Below are positions 509 through 63,296 of a stretch of DNA of 64,000 nt, one piece after another (the first letter of the stretch is position 1; every line of letters starts with the position of its first letter). The notes beneath the pieces were generated by a model. It saw nothing but the letters and a program-made list of their open reading frames with translations, was not told where the DNA came from and did not search any database. The stretch lies in the IMG/VR virus record IMGVR_UViG_2778260992_000001; one strand, given 5' to 3'. Source of the DNA: a virus (lineage: Duplodnaviria > Heunggongvirae > Uroviricota > Caudoviricetes). The position numbers and the translations under genes are program-made.

Positions 509-528
509 TACTGTTTACTTATACAGTG
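509..528. promoter_or_regulatory. LexA (SOS) box-like site upstream of recombinase gene
   Basis: TACTGTTTACTTATACAGTG matches the CTGT-N8-ACAG consensus with an AT-rich spacer. Confidence 0.5.
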
Positions 529-554: not shown

Positions 555-1658
555 ATGAAAAATAGCTTTGACAGAGCGCGCGCTGCGGAGAACACCTCAA
601 AAGAGGCGATTGAGTATCTCGAAAGAGCATCTCAAATGCAGGCCGTTATGATCTCGCAGGTTAGCAATGACATGAGATTCTCGGACGCTTTCATGTTATT
701 CACTCGCTTATCTCTGCTGATAACCAGACGTCGGCCAGAGATCGCTGTTCATTGTATTTTGATACATGTTTTGCCGCACATTGCCGATGTAAAAGTAAGT
801 GACATTAATAGGTTCATGGTGAACCAGCTGGTCAACCCACTAATACTGGATGGCAAAATTGTTATGGGCCGCCGCGTTTTCTCTCTGATGAAGCAGTTCC
901 TTAGCTGGTGCGCCTTCCAGGGGATGATAGACGTGTCACCGTTAAACGATATGTCACTAAACAAAGTTGCCGGTGGCGCAAAGCCCACACCTCGCGAGCG
1001 GAAGCTGACCGACGCAGAGGTATGGGTGTTCTGGAATATATGGGACTACTTCAATGTGTGCGCTGGTACAAAATGGGCGGCCAGGCTGTGTCTTGTATCA
1101 GCAAGACGACCTGACGAAGTACTGCGGGCTAAAAAAAGTGAGTTCAATCTTAAGCGTGGGGTTTGGAATCAAGGCAAGAGAAACAAGTCAGCACGTGAGC
1201 ATTCGCTGCCTTTAAGCACATTGATGCGCACATGCATTGAAGAGTTGTTCGAATACGGTAAAGACAGCCAGTGGCTCGTGCCTTCGAATAAAAAAATCGG
1301 GAAAGACCTTCCTATGTCTAAAGTGGCAATAGCCCAGGCATTACGTCGTATTCTGGAACGACCAGAACTGATGGAGCTTGAGCCATTTACACCCCGAGAT
1401 TTGCGCCGTACTGCGCGTAGTTACTTCCCAGCATTAGGCATAAGCCAGGAGGTATCACGCAAAATCATGAACCACAGTCTTGAGGGGATAGATCGGGTCT
1501 ACGACCGGCACGATTATATGGACGAGATGCGAGACGCCTTAGAAAGTTTCTCGACGTACATCGCATCAATCGTAGAGCAACCGGATTTAGACGAAATTGA
1601 CCACAAATTCAAGGGAGATCGTCTATCAACAGAGCTTATTCGTGTAAATTTTTCATAG
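555..1658 (+). CDS. tyrosine site-specific recombinase (phage integrase family)
   Basis: C-terminal catalytic region PRDLRRTARSY ... RVYDRHDY typical of P4/CP4-57-type integrases; N-terminal region atypical. Confidence 0.7.
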   Translation: MKNSFDRARAAENTSKEAIEYLERASQMQAVMISQVSNDMRFSDAFMLFTRLSLLITRRRPEIAVHCILIHVLPHIADVKVSDINRFMVNQLVNPLILDGKIVMGRRVFSLMKQFLSWCAFQGMIDVSPLNDMSLNKVAGGAKPTPRERKLTDAEVWVFWNIWDYFNVCAGTKWAARLCLVSARRPDEVLRAKKSEFNLKRGVWNQGKRNKSAREHSLPLSTLMRTCIEELFEYGKDSQWLVPSNKKIGKDLPMSKVAIAQALRRILERPELMELEPFTPRDLRRTARSYFPALGISQEVSRKIMNHSLEGIDRVYDRHDYMDEMRDALESFSTYIASIVEQPDLDEIDHKFKGDRLSTELIRVNFS

Positions 1659-2039
1659 AGACTTTATGGCCTCAACAACCTTTTGTGATGCGCCTTTCTC
1701 TTTACCGAATCGCTCGTTATATGCAGCAAGAACCTGTTTTTCATCCTCGTTAAGAGGAGCGGTGCCTTCTTTGTATAAAAATGCTGCGAGTTCAGGTTGG
1801 CGTTCTTCCAGCACCATCATCATAAGACGACTTGGCTCAATACCCAGCGCCAGCGCCAGCGGACGAACCTTATCGATAGGCAAAGGAATTTTGCCACTTT
1901 TAATTAAAGAAAGGTTGTTGGCATTTTTATAACCAATAAGTCTGGCTATTTGGGCCTGACTCATAGGTGAGGATTCAATCAGCCCTGCGATAAAAGCAGC
2001 ATAGCGACTTTCTATAAATTCAATCTTGTTGTCAGACAT
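1653..2039 (-). CDS. XRE-family helix-turn-helix transcriptional regulator (candidate repressor)
   Basis: 128 aa; HTH segment SQAQIARLIGYKNANNLSLIKSGK; divergent from a small ORF. Confidence 0.65.
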   Translation of the reverse strand: MSDNKIEFIESRYAAFIAGLIESSPMSQAQIARLIGYKNANNLSLIKSGKIPLPIDKVRPLALALGIEPSRLMMMVLEERQPELAAFLYKEGTAPLNEDEKQVLAAYNERFGKEKGASQKVVEAIKSL

Positions 2040-2070
2040 TGTTACAACCTTTGCGCGTTTAATTCTCTCT

Positions 2071-2084
2071 GGTAAGTGCTTACC
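2071..2084. promoter_or_regulatory. perfect palindrome GGTAAGTGCTTACC in XRE regulator promoter region (class-2 operator family)
   Basis: About 30 bp upstream of the XRE start; same core recurs in about 12 other intergenic regions. Confidence 0.5.
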
Positions 2085-2290
2085 GATATTACATCAAAGG
2101 TTAGGGTTGTAAAGCTATTATCATTTTTTTCGGCAGGCACTTGTAAGACCGAGCAAAGGTCCATGCATGGAGAAAAACTAGCCCAAATTAGGTAAGAAAA
2201 TTAACTTGCATCTGATATGGATGTATTCAGTATTGATACATATTTTAGTAGTATTCCTTACCATAGTATAAGTTAGAATGGATTGATTGA

Positions 2291-2503
2291 ATGAAAACCA
2301 CTATTTCCAGCCTAATCGCTCTTGAGATCGGACACGTACAGAAATTAGCTGATGAGTGTGTAGCTGACATCCTCACCGATCTACCGAATGAGCAGATTCA
2401 GGTTGGTGTGAATGACACAACTGGCTTTATATTCGAACTTAACAACAAACGCTTCACGCTTCTCAATACCGGCTCCGGGTCTTTAGCCGTCAGAATCTGT
2501 TAA
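2291..2503 (+). CDS. hypothetical small protein (Cro-like position, divergent from XRE regulator)
   Basis: 70-aa ORF; position only, no recognisable motif. Confidence 0.4.
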   Translation: MKTTISSLIALEIGHVQKLADECVADILTDLPNEQIQVGVNDTTGFIFELNNKRFTLLNTGSGSLAVRIC

Positions 2504-4710: not shown

Positions 4711-4805
4711 ATAAAACAGCCTTAATGATAAGTAACCACTTACGATAGTTAATGGTATATTTATATAAGAAGTTGAACGCTCATTAGAGAACAAAGGAAA
4801 AACGC

Positions 4806-11357: not shown

Positions 11358-11388
11358 TGATAGATAATAAGTAAGTGCTGATCTATCA
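11358..11388. promoter_or_regulatory. class-2 palindrome TGATAGATAATAAGTAAGTGCTGATCTATCA
   Basis: Inverted repeat TGATAGAT/ATCTATCA around a TAAGTAAGTG core, upstream of the SSB gene. Confidence 0.45.
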
Positions 11389-14876: not shown

Positions 14877-14890
14877 TCTCTTGAAAACAT

Positions 14891-14906
14891 ATAAGTACTT
14901 ACTTAT
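14891..14906. promoter_or_regulatory. class-2 palindrome ATAAGTACTTACTTAT
   Basis: Between terminator and next start codon. Confidence 0.45.
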
Positions 14907-16821: not shown

Positions 16822-17036
16822 GTTTACAGTAAAATTTATATAAGTTAGTATCTACCTATCATGAAGATTTTTATTGAATACTTGTTACTCATCGTGTCAA
16901 TAGCTTTTGTCATCGACTGCATTTTCACTGGTGTCATTCGTAAAGTCTTTTCCCCGGTGAACGAAGTAGTCATAAACGCTTTGGCTATCGTGCTCGTATT
17001 TAATTCAGCATTTGATGTAATCAAAGAGGTGGCAGC

Positions 17037-20345: not shown

Positions 20346-20366
20346 AATAGGTATATACTTACTTAT
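20346..20366. promoter_or_regulatory. class-2 palindrome AATAGGTATATACTTACTTAT
   Basis: Upstream of the sbcD-like gene. Confidence 0.4.
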
Positions 20367-25022: not shown

Positions 25023-25028
25023 TTTCAT

Positions 25029-25050
25029 TGATAGGTAAGTGCTTATCTAT
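25029..25050. promoter_or_regulatory. class-2 palindrome TGATAGGTAAGTGCTTATCTAT
   Basis: Upstream of nrdA, followed by a GGGCCACTA/TAGTGGCCC hairpin. Confidence 0.45.
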
Positions 25051-25095
25051 TAACATGGGCCACTATATTTAGTGGCCCTCTTTATTTGGTGATAC

Positions 25096-29746: not shown

Positions 29747-29764
29747 ATAAGTAATTACTTATCT
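29747..29764. promoter_or_regulatory. class-2 palindrome AATAAGTAATTACTTATC
   Basis: Perfect ATAAGTAATTACTTAT palindrome about 15 bp upstream of the thyA start. Confidence 0.45.
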
Positions 29765-29777
29765 TTGTGAGGTTTTT

Positions 29778-34431: not shown

Positions 34432-34582
34432 CGTTCCCCTACTGAAAATAAAGCCCATAGAGAGCTTTATAGTGCTGGGTAAGCTAACCCATACCCAGCA
34501 CCACAAAAACGCGCCAGAGAGCTTCTTGTTCGCATTTCTGGCGCGTTTTATTTGATTGCCATACATAAAATCAAATGCAAAA

Positions 34583-34602
34583 ATAGGTAATCACTTACCT
34601 AT
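34583..34602. promoter_or_regulatory. class-2 palindrome ATAGGTAATCACTTACCTAT
   Basis: Perfect 8-bp arms ATAGGTAA/TTACCTAT with 4-bp spacer, just upstream of dam. Confidence 0.5.
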
Positions 34603-35623: not shown

Positions 35624-36204
35624 TAGATAAGTACAAACTATTCATAAGATGGATTGTAAGTGCTAAGATCTGATAGTTTCCAGTCGTAGACTGGAGACTC
35701 GACCTGATGGGTGGGGGTAAGCGTCACTGGCGTCAGGTTTAAAAAAGCTCACTACCAGCGTAGAACCGGTGCCGTTTAGGTGTCGGGGAAGGGGGAACCA
35801 AAGTGAGCGGAGACAAGGGTCACTTTATGATTGTCGAGTCTGGGATGTTTCGAGAGGTTGAATCCAGTACTCCCCTTCATAAAGTGTGGGAAGATCTCGG
35901 TTCTGGGGTGCTGTCATCCATAACTTCCCAAGTCTAAGCTGGCAGTAGACTTAGACCATAGCTTTTCAGGTTATGAAACGACCAGGTTGGTGAGGAATTT
36001 TATACTCACCTCCCTGGGAGAGTATTACCTGAAAAGACAACCTCTCACTTCGTTCGAGGTGAACTTCACTCACTTCGTTCGTTCAGTTCAGGTTTATAAA
36101 AACCTGTACTGGGAAGTAATTTGTTTATTTTAATAATTATTACACGCACGCGTGTGCGCACGCGCGAGGAAAAAATCGGCGCGGCGCTTGATTCAGGAGT
36201 TTAT

Positions 36205-36795
36205 ATGACGTCGAAGACACCAGCCCGGTCGCAAGCAAAAACTCGCAAAAAAGACAAAAACAAAAATTCTCCCCGCACCAATCCCACAACGCCTGTCGTA
36301 GAGTTCAATCCCCAGCTTAAAACCGTGAAAATCTTCAGTGATGGCTCTTGCCTTAAAAATCCGGGTGGCCCGGGCGGTTACGGTATAGTTCTCCAGTATC
36401 GTGGTGAGGAACGCGAGTTCTCAGATGGTTTTCATAGCACCACCAATAACCGCATGGAGATGATGGGGGCACTTATCGGGCTGGAGCGTTTGAAATATCC
36501 ATGCAACGTTATTTTGCACTCTGATAGCCAGTATCTGAAAAACGGCATGACACAGTGGATGAAATGGTGGAAACGCAATGGATGGATGACTTCTGACAAA
36601 AAACCGGTAAAGAATGTTGATCTGTGGAAGCGTCTGGATGAGGCCGCAAGTCGACATAATGTTCGCTGGAAGTGGGTTAAAGGTCACGCCGGGCATCGTG
36701 AAAATGAAATATGTGATCGACTCGCGAAGATCGCAGCTTTTTCCGCAGCAGATATGCCTCACAAGAAAGATATTGGTTTTGTTTATAACAAGTAG
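36205..36795 (+). CDS. rnhA: ribonuclease HI
   Basis: [20 protein letters not shown] ... HSDSQYL ... WVKGHAGH ... NEICDRLA motifs; start at ATG after CAGGAG RBS (track ORF starts upstream in a GC-rich palindrome). Confidence 0.85.
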
Positions 36796-36943
36796 TAAGT
36801 AAGTGTTTACCTATCATTTTAAATCATGTATCTTATCGGCGTCAGGATGACAATGTGTCGGTAAGACACAGTTCCAGGATGGAACGAGAAAGGCGGCTGG
36901 CAATCGCCAGCCGCAACTCTTTCTGACACTGGATGGAGTCCAC

Positions 36944-40079: not shown

Positions 40080-41765
40080 ATGAATACAGCCCTTTCCATC
40101 ATCGACGATGCCAACTCAAACACTGCTATCGATTATCGTCAGGAAATGAACGTCATCCACGAAATTGTGGCCGAGTGCGAGAAGGAGATCGCCTTCATGT
40201 ATCAGGTTCACGACTTCGTTTATGGAGACGAACGCCACAACATGATTAATCGCCTGCTGCAACTGAACCACCGACCAGATGAAGAACGCTCACGTTTGAA
40301 TCGAGCTTGGCTGGATAAAGTCGATCTGGAATGGGTGAAACAGAATATTTGGGCCGAGTACTGGAGGAAGGTCACGGATATGACTAACGTTCTGCTGATC
40401 ATGCCAGCTTCCCGTCGCGACGAGTGGCGTGAGCAGTTTATCGAGGGTAAGCAGGAAGTCATCAAAACTGACAGAACCGGCTATCAGATGAAGGTAAAAG
40501 AGTTCGTTGGTGTACCGGAGTTCAAAGCAGAAACGGTCATACCCACGATGCTTAATTTGCTGAATGACAGGCACAAATATCTCTCTGAGCGCGTGTATGG
40601 CTTGTTTAAGGCGCTGAGTCCTGCGCACAAGACAAATAAGACAAACGGTTTCAGCGAACGTCTGATAATCGCTGACTGCATTTCTGATTTCTGGCGGGAC
40701 AGCGTTAGCGTGAACTATCGCAAAGAGGACTACATCGACGATCTGCGTGTCTTGCTTCATTTCTTCGCGCACAAAGAATTTATTACCATCAACCGCACTG
40801 CTGAGGTGCTATCAGCTGCGTATAGGGCAAACGACTGCCAGACCGGTGACTGGATGAACGTCGATGGAAATCTGATGCGCGTGAAGATGTTCAAGAACGG
40901 CAACGTTCACTTTGAAATACATCCTGACGTGGCCTGGAAGTTGAATGAGGTGCTGGCTTACAGTATGCCTGCTGCAATCCCCGCGCCATGCCGAACTGCG
41001 CCAAAAACACGGGCACCAAAGCAGTTCGGTTTAATCCAGAAGACGATCTCCGTGCCGGTTCGCACTGCGCTTCGTGACGGGCGATTGAGCAAAGACAAAG
41101 GCGTATGGTACTTCTCTGATTCAGCTCTCCAGAAGTCGCAGGTGGAAGAGCTTGAGCGCACACTGAGCTTCATTGGCGGCGTGCAGGAGAAAAAGCACTG
41201 GCAGTTCCCGTATGAGATCGGCCATACGCTAAATACGATTGTGGCTACCGGATTAATACCGGATACAAAATCACACCAGTTCTACCCTACCCCACGCTTG
41301 ATTGCTGAGTACGTTGCCAGAGCCACTGAATTGAAGCCTGGTGAGAAGCTGCTGGAGCCTCAAGCCGGACGTGGGGATCTTCTGGCCTATATTAACGCCG
41401 ATCTGGAAGATGTTACCTGCATAGAAATCGCACCTCTCTTCGCTGATATCCTGCGTGGAAAAGGGTATACGAACACGATTTGCTGCGACTTCATAAAGTG
41501 GTCTGAGGACAACGCAGGTTATCAGTTCGACAAAATCGTTATGAACCCGCCGTACTCGCTTGGTCGTCATAGAGAGCACACGATGGCTGCGCTGGGGCAT
41601 CTGAAAGTCGGCGGGCGTCTTGTAGCAGTATTGCCGGGCACTGCGCCAATACTGGACTGGATGACGATGGATAATTACGTTTATGCCAGAGGGAAGTCGT
41701 TTACCAACGAGTTTGAAGATACCGGGATCACAGTCAGCGTATACGTTTTCAAACGCGTTAAATGA
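40080..41765 (+). CDS. N6-adenine/N4-cytosine-type DNA methyltransferase with about 400-aa N-terminal domain of unknown function
   Basis: C-terminal motifs FYPTPRLIAEYV, LEPQAGRGDL (AdoMet) and NPPY (catalytic); large uncharacterised N-terminus. Confidence 0.6.
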   Translation: MNTALSIIDDANSNTAIDYRQEMNVIHEIVAECEKEIAFMYQVHDFVYGDERHNMINRLLQLNHRPDEERSRLNRAWLDKVDLEWVKQNIWAEYWRKVTDMTNVLLIMPASRRDEWREQFIEGKQEVIKTDRTGYQMKVKEFVGVPEFKAETVIPTMLNLLNDRHKYLSERVYGLFKALSPAHKTNKTNGFSERLIIADCISDFWRDSVSVNYRKEDYIDDLRVLLHFFAHKEFITINRTAEVLSAAYRANDCQTGDWMNVDGNLMRVKMFKNGNVHFEIHPDVAWKLNEVLAYSMPAAIPAPCRTAPKTRAPKQFGLIQKTISVPVRTALRDGRLSKDKGVWYFSDSALQKSQVEELERTLSFIGGVQEKKHWQFPYEIGHTLNTIVATGLIPDTKSHQFYPTPRLIAEYVARATELKPGEKLLEPQAGRGDLLAYINADLEDVTCIEIAPLFADILRGKGYTNTICCDFIKWSEDNAGYQFDKIVMNPPYSLGRHREHTMAALGHLKVGGRLVAVLPGTAPILDWMTMDNYVYARGKSFTNEFEDTGITVSVYVFKRVK

Positions 41766-41784
41766 TAGGTAAATACTTACTTAA
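41763..41784. promoter_or_regulatory. class-2 palindrome TGATAGGTAAATACTTACTTAA
   Basis: Right after methyltransferase stop, upstream of next gene. Confidence 0.4.
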
Positions 41785-41826: not shown

Positions 41827-42531
41827 ATGAGCAACCTCCAGTTAGAGCATTTTAACGTCACAGGCCGTTCTGATTTTCCTTTCAAGTTTACATTGAAAGG
41901 TTATGCAGAGGATGCGGTAGGCCAGATCATTATTGATAAAGGCATCGTTAAGTTTGAGGGGGATTTTGATGAATCCGCGAAAACATTCATAGACTTCGTT
42001 GCCAAACGTTGGAGCGAGCAATGGAAAAACCTGGAAAAGCGCGCCAATGAGTTTGATCGGTTCATGGATGCAATGGATACAGCAAAAGAGGCTCTTGATG
42101 CCGGGACTCCGTTAGATCTGGAGTCACTTTTCAACGGCGAAGTGGCCTCTGCGATGTTTGCCACCATGTTCGCGGGTGAGTTCGTCCGCAGCGGTGCCAA
42201 AAACTACCTTGAGCTGGATTACAACGTCCCTGCAATTGGCGATTTCGTCGTTACCATCCAACGCAAAGAAGGTAAGACGCCAGGTGAACGCGTCGCAGAG
42301 CTTGAGGCCGTTGTGGATCAGCGTAACGGAGAGTGTGACCGTTTGATCAACGAGCTTCATGCACTTCGGGAAGAAAGAATATGTGCGGGTAGCAAGACAC
42401 GTAATGCAGCGGATATCTACTTCCAGTTAGTTGAGGAATGCCAGATTCCACCAGGTGGCTCTCTTGTCGATTACGTCAGACATTTAATGGCGGAAGTTAA
42501 CTCCAGCCATAAAGATGGTGAGGTGCGCTGA
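41827..42531 (+). CDS. hypothetical protein
   Basis: 234-aa ORF; conserved initiation context. Confidence 0.5.
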   Translation: MSNLQLEHFNVTGRSDFPFKFTLKGYAEDAVGQIIIDKGIVKFEGDFDESAKTFIDFVAKRWSEQWKNLEKRANEFDRFMDAMDTAKEALDAGTPLDLESLFNGEVASAMFATMFAGEFVRSGAKNYLELDYNVPAIGDFVVTIQRKEGKTPGERVAELEAVVDQRNGECDRLINELHALREERICAGSKTRNAADIYFQLVEECQIPPGGSLVDYVRHLMAEVNSSHKDGEVR

Positions 42532-42911
42532 TGTTTGGCATTGACGCACAGCGTATAGCCGCTTTTGCAAAAAGCCCTCTTGATAATCCCTTGTCTCGTA
42601 GTGAGCAAATGGAGCTGGCAAGGCTTTTTCTTCACATTCAAAAACAGGCAGACATTTTCAATAACATGCCTAATCAACCTATTCTGGATGGTCACATCCA
42701 GATGGTCATTAACAGTCATGAGAAAGGCTGGGCTGCAATCGTCCCCTGCACAATTACATACAAGTTGGCGAAAGAGGTTCAAGAGTTTCGAAAAGCCAGT
42801 GTCGAATCGGAGTCTACCAAAGCCGCAATAAACACTCTTATTCGCATGGGGTTCACATGGACCGGTGGAGCCTACTGGCAAGCACCTCACCCCATTTTAT
42901 CCGGCAATTAG
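42531..42911 (+). CDS. hypothetical protein
   Basis: 126-aa ORF overlapping previous stop. Confidence 0.45.
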   Translation: MFGIDAQRIAAFAKSPLDNPLSRSEQMELARLFLHIQKQADIFNNMPNQPILDGHIQMVINSHEKGWAAIVPCTITYKLAKEVQEFRKASVESESTKAAINTLIRMGFTWTGGAYWQAPHPILSGN

Positions 42912-47485: not shown

Positions 47486-47505
47486 TACTGTATGCATATA
47501 CAGTA
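47486..47505. promoter_or_regulatory. LexA (SOS) box
   Basis: TACTGTATGCATATACAGTA, perfect CTGT-N8-ACAG palindrome 17 bp upstream of the umuD-like start. Confidence 0.75.
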
Positions 47506-47521: not shown

Positions 47522-47911
47522 ATGGGCTTCCCTTCTCCTGCGGCGGATTATGCTGAGAGCCGTATTTCTCTTGATCAGCAGATAATTAGACATCCTTCAG
47601 CGACCTACTTCATGAGGGCAGCTGATAGTCATCATCGTGAGGGAATATTACAGGGTGCATTGCTGGTGGTCGATTCCTCACTTACCCCGGTTGATGGTTC
47701 TCTGCTTGTATGCGCTCTGGATGGGGAATATCGCGTAAAAAGATACCGGAAGTATCCACGTCAGCATCTGGAGGATTTAAGAACCGGTAAGAAGGAAGCA
47801 TTGCCAAAGGATGACGATGGATGCACGGGCAGCAATGCCGTGTTTGGTGTGATCACTCACATTATCAACGACGCAAGAAGTGGCGAGTTTGATGATTGTC
47901 CCGTGATGTAG
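47522..47911 (+). CDS. UmuD-prime-like SOS mutagenesis protein (P1 HumD-like; S24 LexA-type fold)
   Basis: GFPSPAADYAESRI ... HPSATYF ... VDGEYRVKR aligns with the UmuD C-terminal domain but lacks the N-terminal arm; 129 aa; LexA box upstream; no umuC partner adjacent. Confidence 0.7.
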   Translation: MGFPSPAADYAESRISLDQQIIRHPSATYFMRAADSHHREGILQGALLVVDSSLTPVDGSLLVCALDGEYRVKRYRKYPRQHLEDLRTGKKEALPKDDDGCTGSNAVFGVITHIINDARSGEFDDCPVM

Positions 47912-52645: not shown

Positions 52646-52759
52646 CGGTTGCAACTTATTGATAATGGCGGTCACAATTTGATTCTTTTCTATAAGAATC
52701 CGTTGATCGCCACTACTCCCCTTCCATACCTGCAATCATACCCTTAAATATCAATAGGT

Positions 52760-53560
52760 TATGGTTGTTTATACAAATAAGAAAACAACTAAATAACAGA
52801 TCAACGAAACGTCAACGCTTTCACCCGATTTGGTCTAAAAAATTGACGTTTTCACACATCACTTCTTATACCCGTAACTCTACGCAGCAGACAGCGCCAC
52901 AGCGTCCAATTTTCACCACAGACGACCCAACACACTACCAACAAAAACACACGCTCAAAATCGCTCCCGTTGCGTTACGCAACCATATAAACAACTTATT
53001 TTCAGGCATAACAAAACAACTAAATAACACACATGCCATTCCCAAAAACAACCAACCTCTTTATGGCAGGCTACCGAAAAGACCCACCTCTTCTCCCCAG
53101 GCTACCGGACAACCAACCTAACTTTCACAGGCAATCCGAAAACATTCATACGCGCGATACCCACGACACGCCATTACCCAAACAGCGAAGAAATACCAGA
53201 CTCACTGAAACCCCAACGAAGCCTGTTACCGCAAGGATTCTCTCAATCCCAAAAGACACGAAACAGAACAATCACGGGAAACGCCATTACCCAATACACG
53301 AATAACTACAAAAGCCTTTCAGGCACTCCAGACAAACAACTCAAACACAATAACGAAAGCAATCGCCCACCTGCCATTACTCCATACACGGAGAAGAACA
53401 ATCACCAAAACGACGAGAACACCCCATAGAAGAACCACCGCAAAACGAACGAAACCACATACACCGACAGAGAAAACAACACACCCAATTCACCAACAGA
53501 AATAGTCGCCGTATAGGACATTCTGGAAGGAGTGAGCATTAACGCCTATAGAGAGGTTGA
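52760..53560 (+). repeat. strongly strand-asymmetric A+C-rich, G/T-poor tract with degenerate internal repeats (candidate ncRNA or Rho-loading region)
   Basis: By eye about three-quarters or more A+C on the + strand over about 0.75 kb; repeated GCCATTACCCAA and AAAACAACTAAATAACA units; putative -35 TTGACG (52843-52848) and -10-like at 52866-52871; track ORFs here are low-complexity. Confidence 0.5.
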
Positions 53561-53618
53561 GACAGATAAAACACAACATGTATAGCGAAGAAGCCAGGTA
53601 TGTATAAGTGGGGATGGA

Positions 53619-53645
53619 AGGAGGGGTGTCGCCTCCTTTTTCGTA
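53619..53645 (+). terminator. rho-independent terminator closing the A+C-rich tract
   Basis: AGGAGG-ggtgtcg-CCTCCT followed by TTTTCGTATTT. Confidence 0.6.
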
Positions 53646-53699
53646 TTTATTCAACTCCTGATTTTATCCCCCGTAACACCCCTACGGTCAGCCTTCGGT

Positions 53700-53840
53700 C
53701 CATACAGGGGAAAGGCTGCATCCCGCTACAGAAACGGCTGGGTTGCCTTTGGGAACGGCTGGAGGTTTTCAGGGAAACGGTCGAGTTGCCTGTGTGGATT
53801 TCGGGAAAAGGCTCGATGCCGGTTCAGGAACGGTGGCGTA
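53700..53840. repeat. cluster of GRAAACGGC repeats (copy 1)
   Basis: GGGAAAGGCTG, AGAAACGGCTGG, GGGAACGGCTGG, GGGAAACGGTCG, GGGAAAAGGCTCG, GGAACGGTGG within about 140 bp. Confidence 0.55.
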
Positions 53841-54167
53841 CCGGTATAGCGAGAGGGAGAGTTGCGGCTACCCACCTGTAATGTGCGGGAAGAAGAGAGG
53901 CGCTCACGTAGGCGGACTTGCTTACCGCTGGATTCCCTCTGAATGCCCAGCTACAGCGTAATTGTGCCAGACAGCCAACGGGTCACAATCGATTTCAGTA
54001 GGTTTTTGGGGAGAGGATTACTCTGCCACCAGCCACTTTCGGCCACTAAATCAGAATAATGTAAAAAGTGTACTCGGTACTGAACCTGAAAACTCACTGC
54101 CAAAACCACATTCACCGGAACAAAATCCTTTTTCGCCTGTGCGTTATTGCGATAATAACACCATCAA

Positions 54168-54182
54168 GAAAACATGTTGTTT
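54168..54182. promoter_or_regulatory. class-1 element GAAAACATGTTGTTT with extended -10-like TGCGATAAT upstream
   Basis: CGATAAT-ACACCA-CAAGAAAACA block conserved with the 56.3 and 56.8 kb copies. Confidence 0.5.
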
Positions 54183-54194
54183 AAGGATTGCTTT

Positions 54195-55055: not shown

Positions 55056-55071
55056 TGTAAGTACATACTTA
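55056..55071. promoter_or_regulatory. class-2 palindrome GTAAGTACATACTTAC
   Basis: Perfect 7-bp arms; between terminator and next gene. Confidence 0.45.
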
Positions 55072-55115
55072 CGATCATAGAATATAAAAATAACCAAAAC
55101 ACTACGGAGAGTGAA

Positions 55116-59672: not shown

Positions 59673-60197
59673 TCAAAAAGGCAAAATTCGTTCAACCCAA
59701 TCGAACAAAACAACTATTTTTCTACCGTTCTCGACACGTAGTGTAACCTGACAAGCATCTGCGCCTGCTGACACCCCCTCAATTTCACGGCCATCCGCCA
59801 TGTACACCCTTATAGATTTGTTTGCTTTGTAGGCTTGGTTGCAAATTGCAAAAAAATCGCGGCGTGATGGCCGATTATCGACATAATCAGGGTGAACTGT
59901 TAGTCGACCTTTGAAATCGTGAGCGATACTGTCAACCACACCTGATTCAATTGTACTAATGCGTTCAAGTGGGAGCCTTATACGATTTTCTTTGTCAAAA
60001 GGGGCTGGGCAAAGGTCAACTTTGTTACGAGATGGCATGAGGCCATAAACGTACATGCAAAACGCCTGGCCATCTTCGAGAGTGACCCTTACAGGAATTT
60101 GTTCTCTGCGCCAGAACATCAGTAGTTTTTCAACGTTAGTGTAATCTCGCGGCCAGAGTTCAGCTTGGATACCGTAGGTAATATCTTTGGTTGTCAT
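59673..60197 (-). CDS. hypothetical protein (weak tandem Rof/YaeO-like resemblance)
   Basis: Start set at MTTKDITYG to avoid overlap with upstream lipoprotein gene; resemblance is weak. Confidence 0.4.
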   Translation of the reverse strand: MTTKDITYGIQAELWPRDYTNVEKLLMFWRREQIPVRVTLEDGQAFCMYVYGLMPSRNKVDLCPAPFDKENRIRLPLERISTIESGVVDSIAHDFKGRLTVHPDYVDNRPSRRDFFAICNQAYKANKSIRVYMADGREIEGVSAGADACQVTLRVENGRKIVVLFDWVERILPF

Positions 60198-60201
60198 GTC
60201 A

Positions 60202-60666
60202 TCACAGAGTTGTTGGCAGAATGTCGATGTCACCAGAATTGCTGGTGAACACCCTGAACGCTTTTGTGTCTCCATTCTTCAGAGTCGTTTCTCGCTCTTG
60301 ACGAGCGGGGTTTAGAGCACATAAACCTGCACCTTCAAGAGATGCACCCACAATTAATTCTCCGGCATTTAAATGAAAAGTCGCTTTTTCGCCTGTAGCC
60401 AGTTTTGCGACAGTTTCGCCATTGATGAAAATGGAAGCATCACATCCAGCTCCTACAAAACCTGTGTCTCTCATTACCACCAACGTAGCTGGCGCTGCGC
60501 TTTGATACTTGAACACTTTGGCCTGCGGTGCTGGTTTGGCGTCATGGATTGATATTGGACGTGATTGGCACGCGGTAAGCATCAACACTGGTAACGTTAG
60601 TAGAGGGAGAAGCGAGTATTTCATGTTAGTTTTAGAACAGAAAGTGAACAGTATGGGAGACTTCAT
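60202..60666 (-). CDS. lipoprotein (DUF2846-like by pattern)
   Basis: Lipobox LTAC after hydrophobic signal; start may instead be the internal MKYSLL. Confidence 0.5.
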   Translation of the reverse strand: MKSPILFTFCSKTNMKYSLLPLLTLPVLMLTACQSRPISIHDAKPAPQAKVFKYQSAAPATLVVMRDTGFVGAGCDASIFINGETVAKLATGEKATFHLNAGELIVGASLEGAGLCALNPARQERETTLKNGDTKAFRVFTSNSGDIDILPTTL

Positions 60667-60692: not shown

Positions 60693-60971
60693 TTATTTTA
60701 ATCTGCTTAATAGCGTTTCAAGATCTTCCTTTGTCATATTAGAGTTCTCATAGATACGCATGATTTTCTCACGAGTCTTAGCGGAAGCCCCGACAGAAGA
60801 TATAACCTTGTCAAAGTCGGCCATTGTCAATTGTTCCAGAATGGTATTTATGACTTCAGCCTTAGACATTTTGATATTTTTTTCTTTTAGTTTCACTTGA
60901 AACTTTCCAAGTTTGTCATTGGCCTTATCAGACAATGCTACCTGACAGTAAGTTGTTTTCTTTTCACTCAT
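60693..60971 (-). CDS. hypothetical protein
   Basis: 92-aa ORF, Lys/Glu-rich. Confidence 0.4.
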   Translation of the reverse strand: MSEKKTTYCQVALSDKANDKLGKFQVKLKEKNIKMSKAEVINTILEQLTMADFDKVISSVGASAKTREKIMRIYENSNMTKEDLETLLSRLK

Positions 60972-62575: not shown

Positions 62576-62601
62576 ATAATAAGTAAGTGATTACTTAGTG
62601 G
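62576..62601. promoter_or_regulatory. class-2 palindrome ATAATAAGTAAGTGATTACTTAGTGG in divergent promoter region
   Basis: Between helicase start (minus) and ParB-like start (plus). Confidence 0.45.
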
Positions 62602-63296
62602 ATTGTAGCAATAAAATGGATGTAAAAATCACGATTTTGCAGGTTGATGTTGCCAACCTTCGCCCGAATACCTGGAACACCAATTCGGTTGGTGCGCAGA
62701 ATTTTGAAAAACTGAAAGGTTCTATCGAAAAATTGGGCTTTTTTAAGCCAATTTTGGCTCGTGAACTTGAAGATGGATTTTTTGAAATCCTCGGCGGTGA
62801 ACATCGCTGGCGTGCTGCTATTGAGCAAGGAATTTCAACGGTTCCGGTGCTTTCTGTGGGCAAAATTAGCGATGTCGTAGCTAAACAGATGTCACTGGTG
62901 GACAACGAGCGATACGGTGAAGACGACCAAATCGCATTGCAACGCTTCATTGAAGAAATTCAGTCAGAACTTGACTATCAACTGTTTGAAATCGCTCCGT
63001 ATGACGACGAAATCTCGATGGTTTTAGCAAAAGAGGCGGCAATCGACCTTGAAGCACTGGAGGCGTTGTCTCGTGGTAGTGATGAGCCTGTCGATACCGA
63101 CAAACGAGAGAAAACCGAACGTGTGGGTGCGGAACATCAGACCATGCGCTTCAAAGTAACTTTCGATGCGTCAGATCGTGTTGCAGAAACCATAAAAAAC
63201 ATCATCAAAGAGCAGGCTATTAACACCGGTAATGAAATGGAGAACGCTGGTGAGGCTCTGGTGTGGCTGGTCGACTACTACAAGGAGCGTATGTAA
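62598..63296 (+). CDS. ParB-like nuclease-domain protein 1
   Basis: ParB/Srx-fold N-terminal motifs including GGEHRWRAA. Confidence 0.6.
   Translation: MDCSNKMDVKITILQVDVANLRPNTWNTNSVGAQNFEKLKGSIEKLGFFKPILARELEDGFFEILGGEHRWRAAIEQGISTVPVLSVGKISDVVAKQMSLVDNERYGEDDQIALQRFIEEIQSELDYQLFEIAPYDDEISMVLAKEAAIDLEALEALSRGSDEPVDTDKREKTERVGAEHQTMRFKVTFDASDRVAETIKNIIKEQAINTGNEMENAGEALVWLVDYYKERM

Follow-up and report, generated by a model that had tools for sequence, protein, structure and literature searches.

A dispersed family of palindromic operators in an SSU5-like phage-plasmid and its putative XRE-type master repressor

In the plasmid prophage P1, a single repressor, C1, is thought to act at many operators around a genome of about 100 kb. 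C1 is a protein of 283 aa and belongs to a different family than the regulator considered here, its operators are asymmetric 17-bp sites, and the late genes of P1 are controlled indirectly via Lpa. In mycobacteriophage L5, some 20-30 sites for gp71 are spread over the short gaps between genes, in early as well as late gene arrays. These so-called stoperators are asymmetric 13-mers with an orientation bias which mainly act on elongation. Here, we analyzed a stretch of 64,000 nucleotides from a virus of the class Caudoviricetes (IMG/VR virus record IMGVR_UViG_2778260992_000001; hereafter the window), which encodes an XRE-type helix-turn-helix (HTH) regulator of 128 aa and carries a family of palindromes dispersed over its intergenic regions. 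Our verdict is that of a genome-wide repressor/operator network in an uncharacterised family, that is, a prophage master repressor with a dispersed regulon, for which the XRE protein is the putative repressor. An earlier note on this DNA had likened the system to the C1 network of P1-like plasmid prophages. The analogy is apt with regard to the scattered operators, whereas the types of element, repressor and operator all differ.

With regard to the element, the window is collinear with the E. coli plasmid pG749_2 (NZ_CP014490.1) at 99.5% identity over 56 kb. Megablast of its first 8 kb returned pG749_2 at 100%, Escherichia phage Cyrano at 97.7% and Salmonella phage SSU5 at 79% identity, which makes the element SSU5-like rather than P1-like. 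Judged by this collinear nucleotide similarity to SSU5-group elements, the window is the half of an SSU5-like phage-plasmid that holds the early, replication and nucleotide-metabolism genes, the whole element having a size of about 110 kb, as in pG749_2. Nearly all window genes lie on the plus strand, the XRE gene lies on the minus strand, and the annotated coding share is 79%. To the SSU5-like group belong S. Typhi pHCM2, Y. pestis pMT1 and resistance-carrying elements of Klebsiella and Enterobacter (PMC9600943). Elements of this group can be induced with mitomycin C and with ciprofloxacin (PMC9600943, PMC9928086).

The palindrome has the consensus ATArGTAAGTACTTACyTAT, an inverted repeat of 20 bp (not 21 bp as first described) with weakly conserved A/T flanks. 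Thirteen strong sites were found in the window (Table 1) and at least 21 sites with scores of 17 bits or more along the full circle of pG749_2, including the gaps between terminase, portal, capsid and tail genes. The motif was present at all 12 intergenic positions named in the earlier note, and our scan extended the list by a further strong site (16840) and by four weak sites (16513, 29609, 35244 and 35623). Searching the window with the 14-mer GGTAAGTGCTTACC from the XRE promoter gave 5 matches at up to two mismatches, with 0.17 expected. Using a symmetrised 20-bp matrix, 11 sites scored at least 16 bits and 18 sites at least 12 bits, compared with 0.03 and 0.64 in Markov-1 random sequence, so that the palindromes are far more frequent than chance allows. 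Leave-one-out scores reached at least 15 bits for 10 of the 13 strong sites. All 13 are located in annotated intergenic DNA, at 11 to 177 bp from the next start codon, a wider range than the 15-110 bp originally given. Of the 92 sites in pG749_2, SSU5, the Klebsiella phage-plasmid pJN2-26 and an Acinetobacter relative taken together, just 3 fell inside long open frames, compared with about 60% of random positions. No site of this motif is found near the repB or parA-like promoters of pG749_2. The palindrome that had been called perfect at the XRE promoter is indeed there, but its arrangement is 6+2+6 with a non-palindromic TG centre. Taken together, these results confirm the dispersed operator family, which behaves as a set of protein-dimer sites over promoters.

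Table 1. Coordinates of predicted features in the window (scores from the palindrome matrix)
Feature	Position	Strand	Score (bits)	Context
Integrase gene	555-1658			convergent with XRE gene, 6-bp overlap with XRE 3' end
XRE-type HTH regulator, 128 aa	1653..2039	-		WP_001282577.1; 98% identical to CYRAN_45 'putative repressor'
Autoregulatory candidate operator	2068..2087			core GGTAAGTGCTTACC 2071-2084, directly downstream of XRE -10, 32 bp upstream of XRE start codon
Predicted sigma-70 promoter of XRE gene, TTTACA-16-TAATAT	2086..2113	-		promoter scan
ORF70, divergent conserved partner of XRE	2291..2503	+		phrog_2627
Operator site	4728..4747		15.7-16.3	between CobT-like and CobS-like genes
Operator site	11367..11386		22	overlaps promoter-like TAGATA-17-TATCAT
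Operator site	14887..14906			fills spacer and -10 of TTGAAA-17-TATTAT, just past intrinsic terminator
Operator site	16840..16859		16.6-20	overlaps TTTATA-16-TATCAT; absent from earlier list
Operator site	20347..20366		23.5	upstream of SbcD-like gene
Operator site	25031..25050		26	upstream of nrdA, inside TTGATA-17-TAACAT
Operator site	29747..29766		22.7	11 nt upstream of thymidylate synthase start codon
Operator site	34583..34602		26.6	11 nt upstream of adenine methyltransferase start; covers +1 region of TTGCCA-17-AAAAAT
Operator site	36795..36814		24.3
Operator site	41765..41784		25	at end of DUF4942 gene
Operator site	55057..55076		13.5-13.9	inside TTGTAA-17-TAGAAT, just past terminator
Operator site	62579..62598		22.8	divergent DEAD-box helicase/ParB-like region, 17 nt upstream of ParB-like start codon
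Motif-2 sites	2568, 16034, 27472, 37691, 38420, 42961, 51323, 51374, 54168, 54652, 55555, 56305, 56790	+

We analyzed how the two arms of the sites vary and how they are placed relative to promoters. At every mirrored pair, Watson-Crick complementarity equalled the expectation under independence, and the variable R/Y pair at positions 4 and 17 showed no association (Fisher p = 1.0). Since the arms vary independently, they are best described as two protein half-sites, as for a dimer, and not as a selected hairpin. Such inverted repeats with independent half-sites are consistent with putative dimer binding. In a gene-oriented aggregate of 65 sites, the flanks were roughly mirror-symmetric (aaaaR...yAT) with no fixed -35, both halves were about equally conserved and there was no strong orientation asymmetry. 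A consensus promoter scan of the first 60 kb (1-60 kb) yielded 27 plus-strand promoter-like matches, 7 of which overlap motif sites in differing geometries. The site covers the spacer and -10 at promoters 14881, 11361 and 16835, the -35 and spacer at 25028 and 55055, and the +1 region at 34556, the latter arrangement also being found at the minus-strand XRE promoter. Variable geometry over core promoters points to repressor operators because activator sites need fixed spacing.

The network is not confined to E. coli elements. About 25 sites with the same consensus were found in SSU5 and about 25 in pJN2-26. In a distant SSU5-like phage-plasmid from Acinetobacter baumannii (NZ_CP155459.1), about 30 intergenic sites hold another palindrome with this architecture, aTCAGTCAGT-ACTGACTGAt (half-sites TCAGTCAGT and ACTGACTGA; also written aTCAGTCAGTACTGACTGAt). 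One of these lies at the same position as the 62579 site of the window, and two clear sites plus one degenerate half-site are found upstream of the Acinetobacter XRE gene. In both lineages the half-sites resemble two tandem tetramers, AAGT-AAGT in the enteric and CAGT-CAGT in the Acinetobacter element. With regard to the protein, the recognition-helix stretch GYKNANNLSLIKSGKIPLP is near-invariant across the enteric lineages that share the motif, although the whole proteins are only 57-66% identical, while the Acinetobacter homologue is about 40% identical and has the helix FKRPNVLSMIKSG. Further, in a lineage with the helix KYQNQVSFIKSG the inner motif is shifted to GTATGTATTTAC (only about 7 sites, 20 kb examined). 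The XRE recognition helix thus appears to be conserved where the motif is conserved and to differ where the motif differs, which is circumstantial evidence for a link between the two.

The XRE protein itself was characterized by profile searches and structure modeling. It matched phrog_8 'transcriptional regulator' (E = 6.6e-12). An AlphaFold2 (AF2) model had a predicted local distance difference test score (pLDDT) of 73, with values of 80-88 over residues 11-80. The HTH core of the model matched C.AhdI, C.BclI, C.Esp1396I, HigA, 434 repressor and SinR with template modeling (TM) scores to target of 0.65-0.79 and a probability of 1.0, while a sequence search of the PDB returned no match. Together with the phrog_8 match, the model indicates a five-helix HTH_XRE DNA-binding domain, and the predicted fold resembles that of dimeric palindrome-binding HTH proteins. 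No match to the autocleavage domain Peptidase_S24 was found in the 128 residues, whose C-terminus consists of three short helices in the model. Within a 250-bp intergenic region that otherwise diverges, the XRE promoter (TTTACA-16/17-TAATAT) and the palindrome core have been conserved between E. coli, pHCM2, pMT1 and Klebsiella pJN2-26. On the other side of this region, ORF70 has no recognisable Cro-like HTH and forms part of an int-XRE-ORF70 module.

Expression in the plasmid state was assessed using published RNA sequencing (RNA-seq) of LF82 carrying Cyrano, a 98%-identical element (PMC9928086 supplement), with a background value of 9.8. In these lysogens, the XRE gene (CYRAN_45) stood at 96, RepA at 133 and ParA at 50, and almost all lytic genes were at background (PMC9928086). 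At about ten times background, XRE is the only annotated DNA-binding regulator that is clearly expressed. The genes flanking the 20347 site showed values of 31.5 upstream and 7.5 downstream of it. ORF70 stood at 20 in LB and was about 90-fold higher in macrophages.

Based on these results, we propose, with a probability of roughly 60%, that the 128-aa XRE protein is the putative lysogeny-maintenance repressor which binds the dispersed palindromes. The earlier note had named it as a candidate master repressor. The dispersed network it described was recovered, and the link to XRE is circumstantial, drawn from the site at its own promoter, its expression in lysogens and the co-variation of helix and motif. 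In the proposed mechanism, XRE dimers on the 20-bp repeats would occlude sigma-70 promoters genome-wide and thereby keep phage genes silent during plasmid life. The network would span at least 13 intergenic gaps of the window and at least 21 of the whole 110-kb element, the structural-gene half included. Because most sites overlap or abut sigma-70-type promoters (at the -35/spacer, the spacer/-10 or +1), a bound repressor would block initiation there, and sites with no recognisable promoter (e.g. 29747 and 34583) may be roadblocks to read-through. Negative autoregulation would come from the weaker site that follows the -10 of the XRE promoter and covers its +1 region, and repB and the parA-like partition gene, which carry no site, remain on.

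Several observations weigh against XRE as the binder. Its Pfam match to HTH_19 scores 18.9 bits, below the gathering threshold of 30.2. The co-variation of XRE lineage and motif spans a deep divergence that has altered all the other proteins too, the XRE-proximal site ranks with the weakest (leave-one-out score 12.6 bits), and a contiguous footprint of 20-26 bp is long for a single XRE-type dimer. SSU5 is without the whole integrase-XRE-ORF70 module (SSU5 42525-42761 compared with window 555-2503) and nevertheless retains the sites. In SSU5, the CobT-like gene comes right after tRNA-Asn, the junction being about 88 bp ahead of its start codon, and the flanks share 93.6% identity with pHCM2. 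An XRE-less SSU5 with sites fits either a derivative that has no repressor and is effectively lytic or another binder. In contrast to the 996 plasmids with XRE homologues, SSU5, the only SSU5-like genome checked that has no XRE gene, was isolated as free phage, a contrast that counts in favour of XRE, and absence of the module may explain its lytic behaviour. The remaining points concern ParB-like protein 1 (62616-63296). Together with ParB-like protein 2, it is encoded in all four genomes with the network, the XRE-less SSU5 included, it aligns to Spo0J residues 23-171 with the HTH included, and a strong site precedes its start codon by 15-17 nt in both the E. coli and the Acinetobacter element.

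These points raise the possibility that another protein of the element binds the palindromes, mainly ParB-like protein 1 acting like RK2 KorB or Noc, in which case XRE would control only its own local switch. ParB-family proteins bind dispersed palindromes, so the family would suit the role. Yet ParB-like 1 (CYRAN_119) had zero reads (floor) and ParB-like 2 (CYRAN_120) was at background in the Cyrano lysogens. At these values neither protein can be what keeps promoters off in the plasmid state, and the sites lie directly on core promoters and not at KorB-like distal positions. A weaker candidate for such a binder is orf92 (CYRAN_117), a gene of 92 codons at 60693-60971 on the minus strand, directly downstream of the DEAD-box helicase gene and conserved in SSU5 and Klebsiella. 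It is expressed at 114 in Cyrano lysogens, 12 times background (PMC9928086), and an ORF of the same size follows the helicase gene in Acinetobacter. No DNA-binding domain is detectable in orf92, with no Pfam match even at E <= 10, and its AF2 model is unusable (pLDDT 52). The idea that it is a ribbon-helix-helix repressor was a guess from a sequence pattern and was dropped given this lack of Pfam support and the poor model; were the N-terminus to form a ribbon-helix-helix strand, the residues expected to face the DNA would vary (Y/H/S and A/Q/K) among lineages that share the motif. Overall, we regard a binder other than XRE as unlikely, albeit to be taken seriously. A FljA-like 'transcriptional repressor' (59673-60275) was also rejected: the Acinetobacter element has the network without a detectable homologue of this protein, and its expression in lysogens is only about twice background.

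Alternatively, the palindromes may be a phage-specific promoter element bound by a lytic-cycle activator, similar to the P1 Lpa box. The right flank in the 65-site aggregate, TATyAT, is -10-like and comes with no fixed -35, sites also lie ahead of structural genes, SSU5 retains its sites in the absence of XRE, and a second palindrome family in other gaps suggests promoter classes. Against this, the left flank mirrors the right one, and with flanks this nearly symmetric the TATyAT may belong to the binding site itself. Where both hexamers are recognisable, the geometry varies between -35, spacer, -10 and +1 as described above, and at the XRE gene, which is expressed in lysogens, the site follows the -10 and so occupies a repressing position. 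Further, no candidate for the activator was identified. We therefore consider an activator improbable.

A third explanation holds that the sites belong to the regulon of a host transcription factor which the element exploits. The motif is common to E. coli, Salmonella and Klebsiella elements and different in Acinetobacter, and thus tracks host clade as well as element lineage. We searched 5,426 complete E. coli genomes with a 32-nt consensus and obtained 840 places in 218 genomes, all of them on plasmids. These plasmids are about 100-115 kb, with a few larger, which is phage-plasmid size. No near-consensus copy was found on an E. coli chromosome among the 5,426 genomes. Copies restricted to plasmids argue against a host regulon, and to our knowledge no E. 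coli factor has this consensus. A host factor was accordingly ruled out as a working candidate and is very unlikely. Finally, hairpin formation in RNA or DNA (as terminator, processing site or cruciform) was considered, as the inverted repeats lie between genes and some adjoin hairpin terminators, before or after. This reading is hardly credible and was likewise rejected, since the arms do not covary, the centre would leave a loop of 0-2 nt, the A/T-rich stems have no T-tract, and an Rfam and tRNA search of the window gave zero matches.

In case XRE, which has no S24 domain, is the repressor, the question arises how the element is released, given that induction of Cyrano by ciprofloxacin is 39-fold (PMC9928086). 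The whole element contains only two good LexA boxes, both near-consensus, at int and at a umuD-like gene. The first, TACTGTTTACTTATACAGTG, at window 509-528, immediately precedes the integrase gene and has been retained in a divergent lineage (L017). The second, TACTGTATGCATATACAGTA, is located at 47486-47505 just upstream of an S24-only UmuD-like ORF (47522-47911). Both int and the S24 gene rise in macrophages in the Cyrano RNA-seq data. LexA control of a site-linked antirepressor was discarded because these two are the only genes preceded by a good LexA box. As int is convergent with XRE and the two genes overlap at their 3' ends, an int transcript induced by the SOS response would extend in antisense into the repressor gene. 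Such SOS-driven antisense transcription from int is a speculative route of induction. We also considered an extended scheme in which one small, non-cleavable XRE protein silences the whole 110-kb element via at least 20-30 symmetric operators, some acting as roadblocks inside operons, in which SOS input arrives, instead of by repressor cleavage or an antirepressor, through the LexA-controlled int promoter, whose transcript runs antisense into the 3' end of the repressor gene, and in which a second palindrome family, GAAAACAAnTTGTTTTC, forms a separate regulatory class in the other intergenic gaps. In this complete form the scheme is rather improbable.

The second palindrome was observed in the window with 16 matches at up to three mismatches, compared with 0.64 expected. 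Perfect copies of AAACAA-N1-TTGTTT number 9-11 each in pG749_2, SSU5 and Klebsiella pJN2-26. The sites listed in Table 1 lie roughly 10-55 nt upstream of plus-strand start codons. The second motif occupies 12 gaps and the first 15, with one shared, and one copy of the second motif precedes the lysogen-expressed parA-like gene in pG749_2. In the small-gene region of the Acinetobacter element, a repeated ATCGAAACAA element lies roughly 10-45 nt upstream of start codons and is perhaps the counterpart of this second motif.

Some further features of the window were recorded. In window 1-60000, sigma-70-like promoter matches are rarer than in shuffled sequence (23, 15 and 28 compared with about 31 expected per 20 kb), which suggests selection against spurious promoters in a co-directional gene array. 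Downstream of the nrdA site, a strong terminator-like hairpin, GGGCCACTATATTTAGTGGCCC, with a T-rich tail lies within the region 25051-25095, between the predicted -10 TAACAT (25051-25056) and the start codon (25096), and could possibly be a leader attenuator. Two stretches of 1.3 and 1.5 kb (35624-36943 and 52646-54194) have no gene annotated in the PLSDB table and gave no Rfam family or tRNA match. The Cyrano counterpart of the first contains a 45-codon ORF, CYRAN_81, with a lysogen expression of 12 times background.

SSU5-like phage-plasmids are common in Enterobacterales, and XRE homologues are found on 996 PLSDB plasmids. We found no prior account of the motif or the operators in the full-text literature searched, the SSU5 primary papers being outside that scope, and no description there of repressor targets or of the lysogeny switch of SSU5-like elements, while the protein has already been annotated as a putative repressor. 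The operator consensus and site map represent an immediately testable regulon and may predict which cargo genes escape silencing. If the proposal is correct, cross-immunity would follow from one operator common to E. coli, Salmonella and Klebsiella elements and another in Acinetobacter, whose XRE would act on TCAGTCAGTACTGACTGA sites only.

The network shares features with several described systems and is identical to none of them. As in lambdoid CI, 434 and P22 C2 repressors and in the C proteins of restriction-modification systems, an XRE-type fold comes with palindromic operators, an autoregulatory promoter site, a small ORF running divergently and a neighbouring integrase gene. Different from lambdoid repressors, the 128-aa XRE has no S24 domain and thus no autocleavage domain of the LexA/CI type, and the operators, 20-30 in number, are dispersed instead of forming two triple-operator clusters. 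With RK2 KorB, the system has in common one palindrome in many copies near promoters and a ParB-family gene preceded by a site. In contrast to KorB, the ParB-like genes are silent in the plasmid state and lie in a lytic operon beside terminase genes, so that the protein family is present in the element and the protein is not expected in the plasmid state. Like L5 gp71, the network comprises about 30 short-intergenic sites in early and late operons, a distribution compatible with silencing of the entire genome in the lysogen. The sites here are palindromic, with equally conserved halves and no single orientation, and many overlap core promoters, unlike the stoperators. Like P1 C1, it is dispersed around the whole element, and the conservation of operators across related elements implies in both cases that immunity specificity cannot easily drift. 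C1, compared by description, differs in that the network analyzed here has a small XRE-type HTH protein, a symmetric 20-bp palindrome in place of an asymmetric 17-bp operator, and sites inside the structural-gene region. The network thus resembles P1 C1 in function and comes closer to the L5 gp71 stoperators in distribution.

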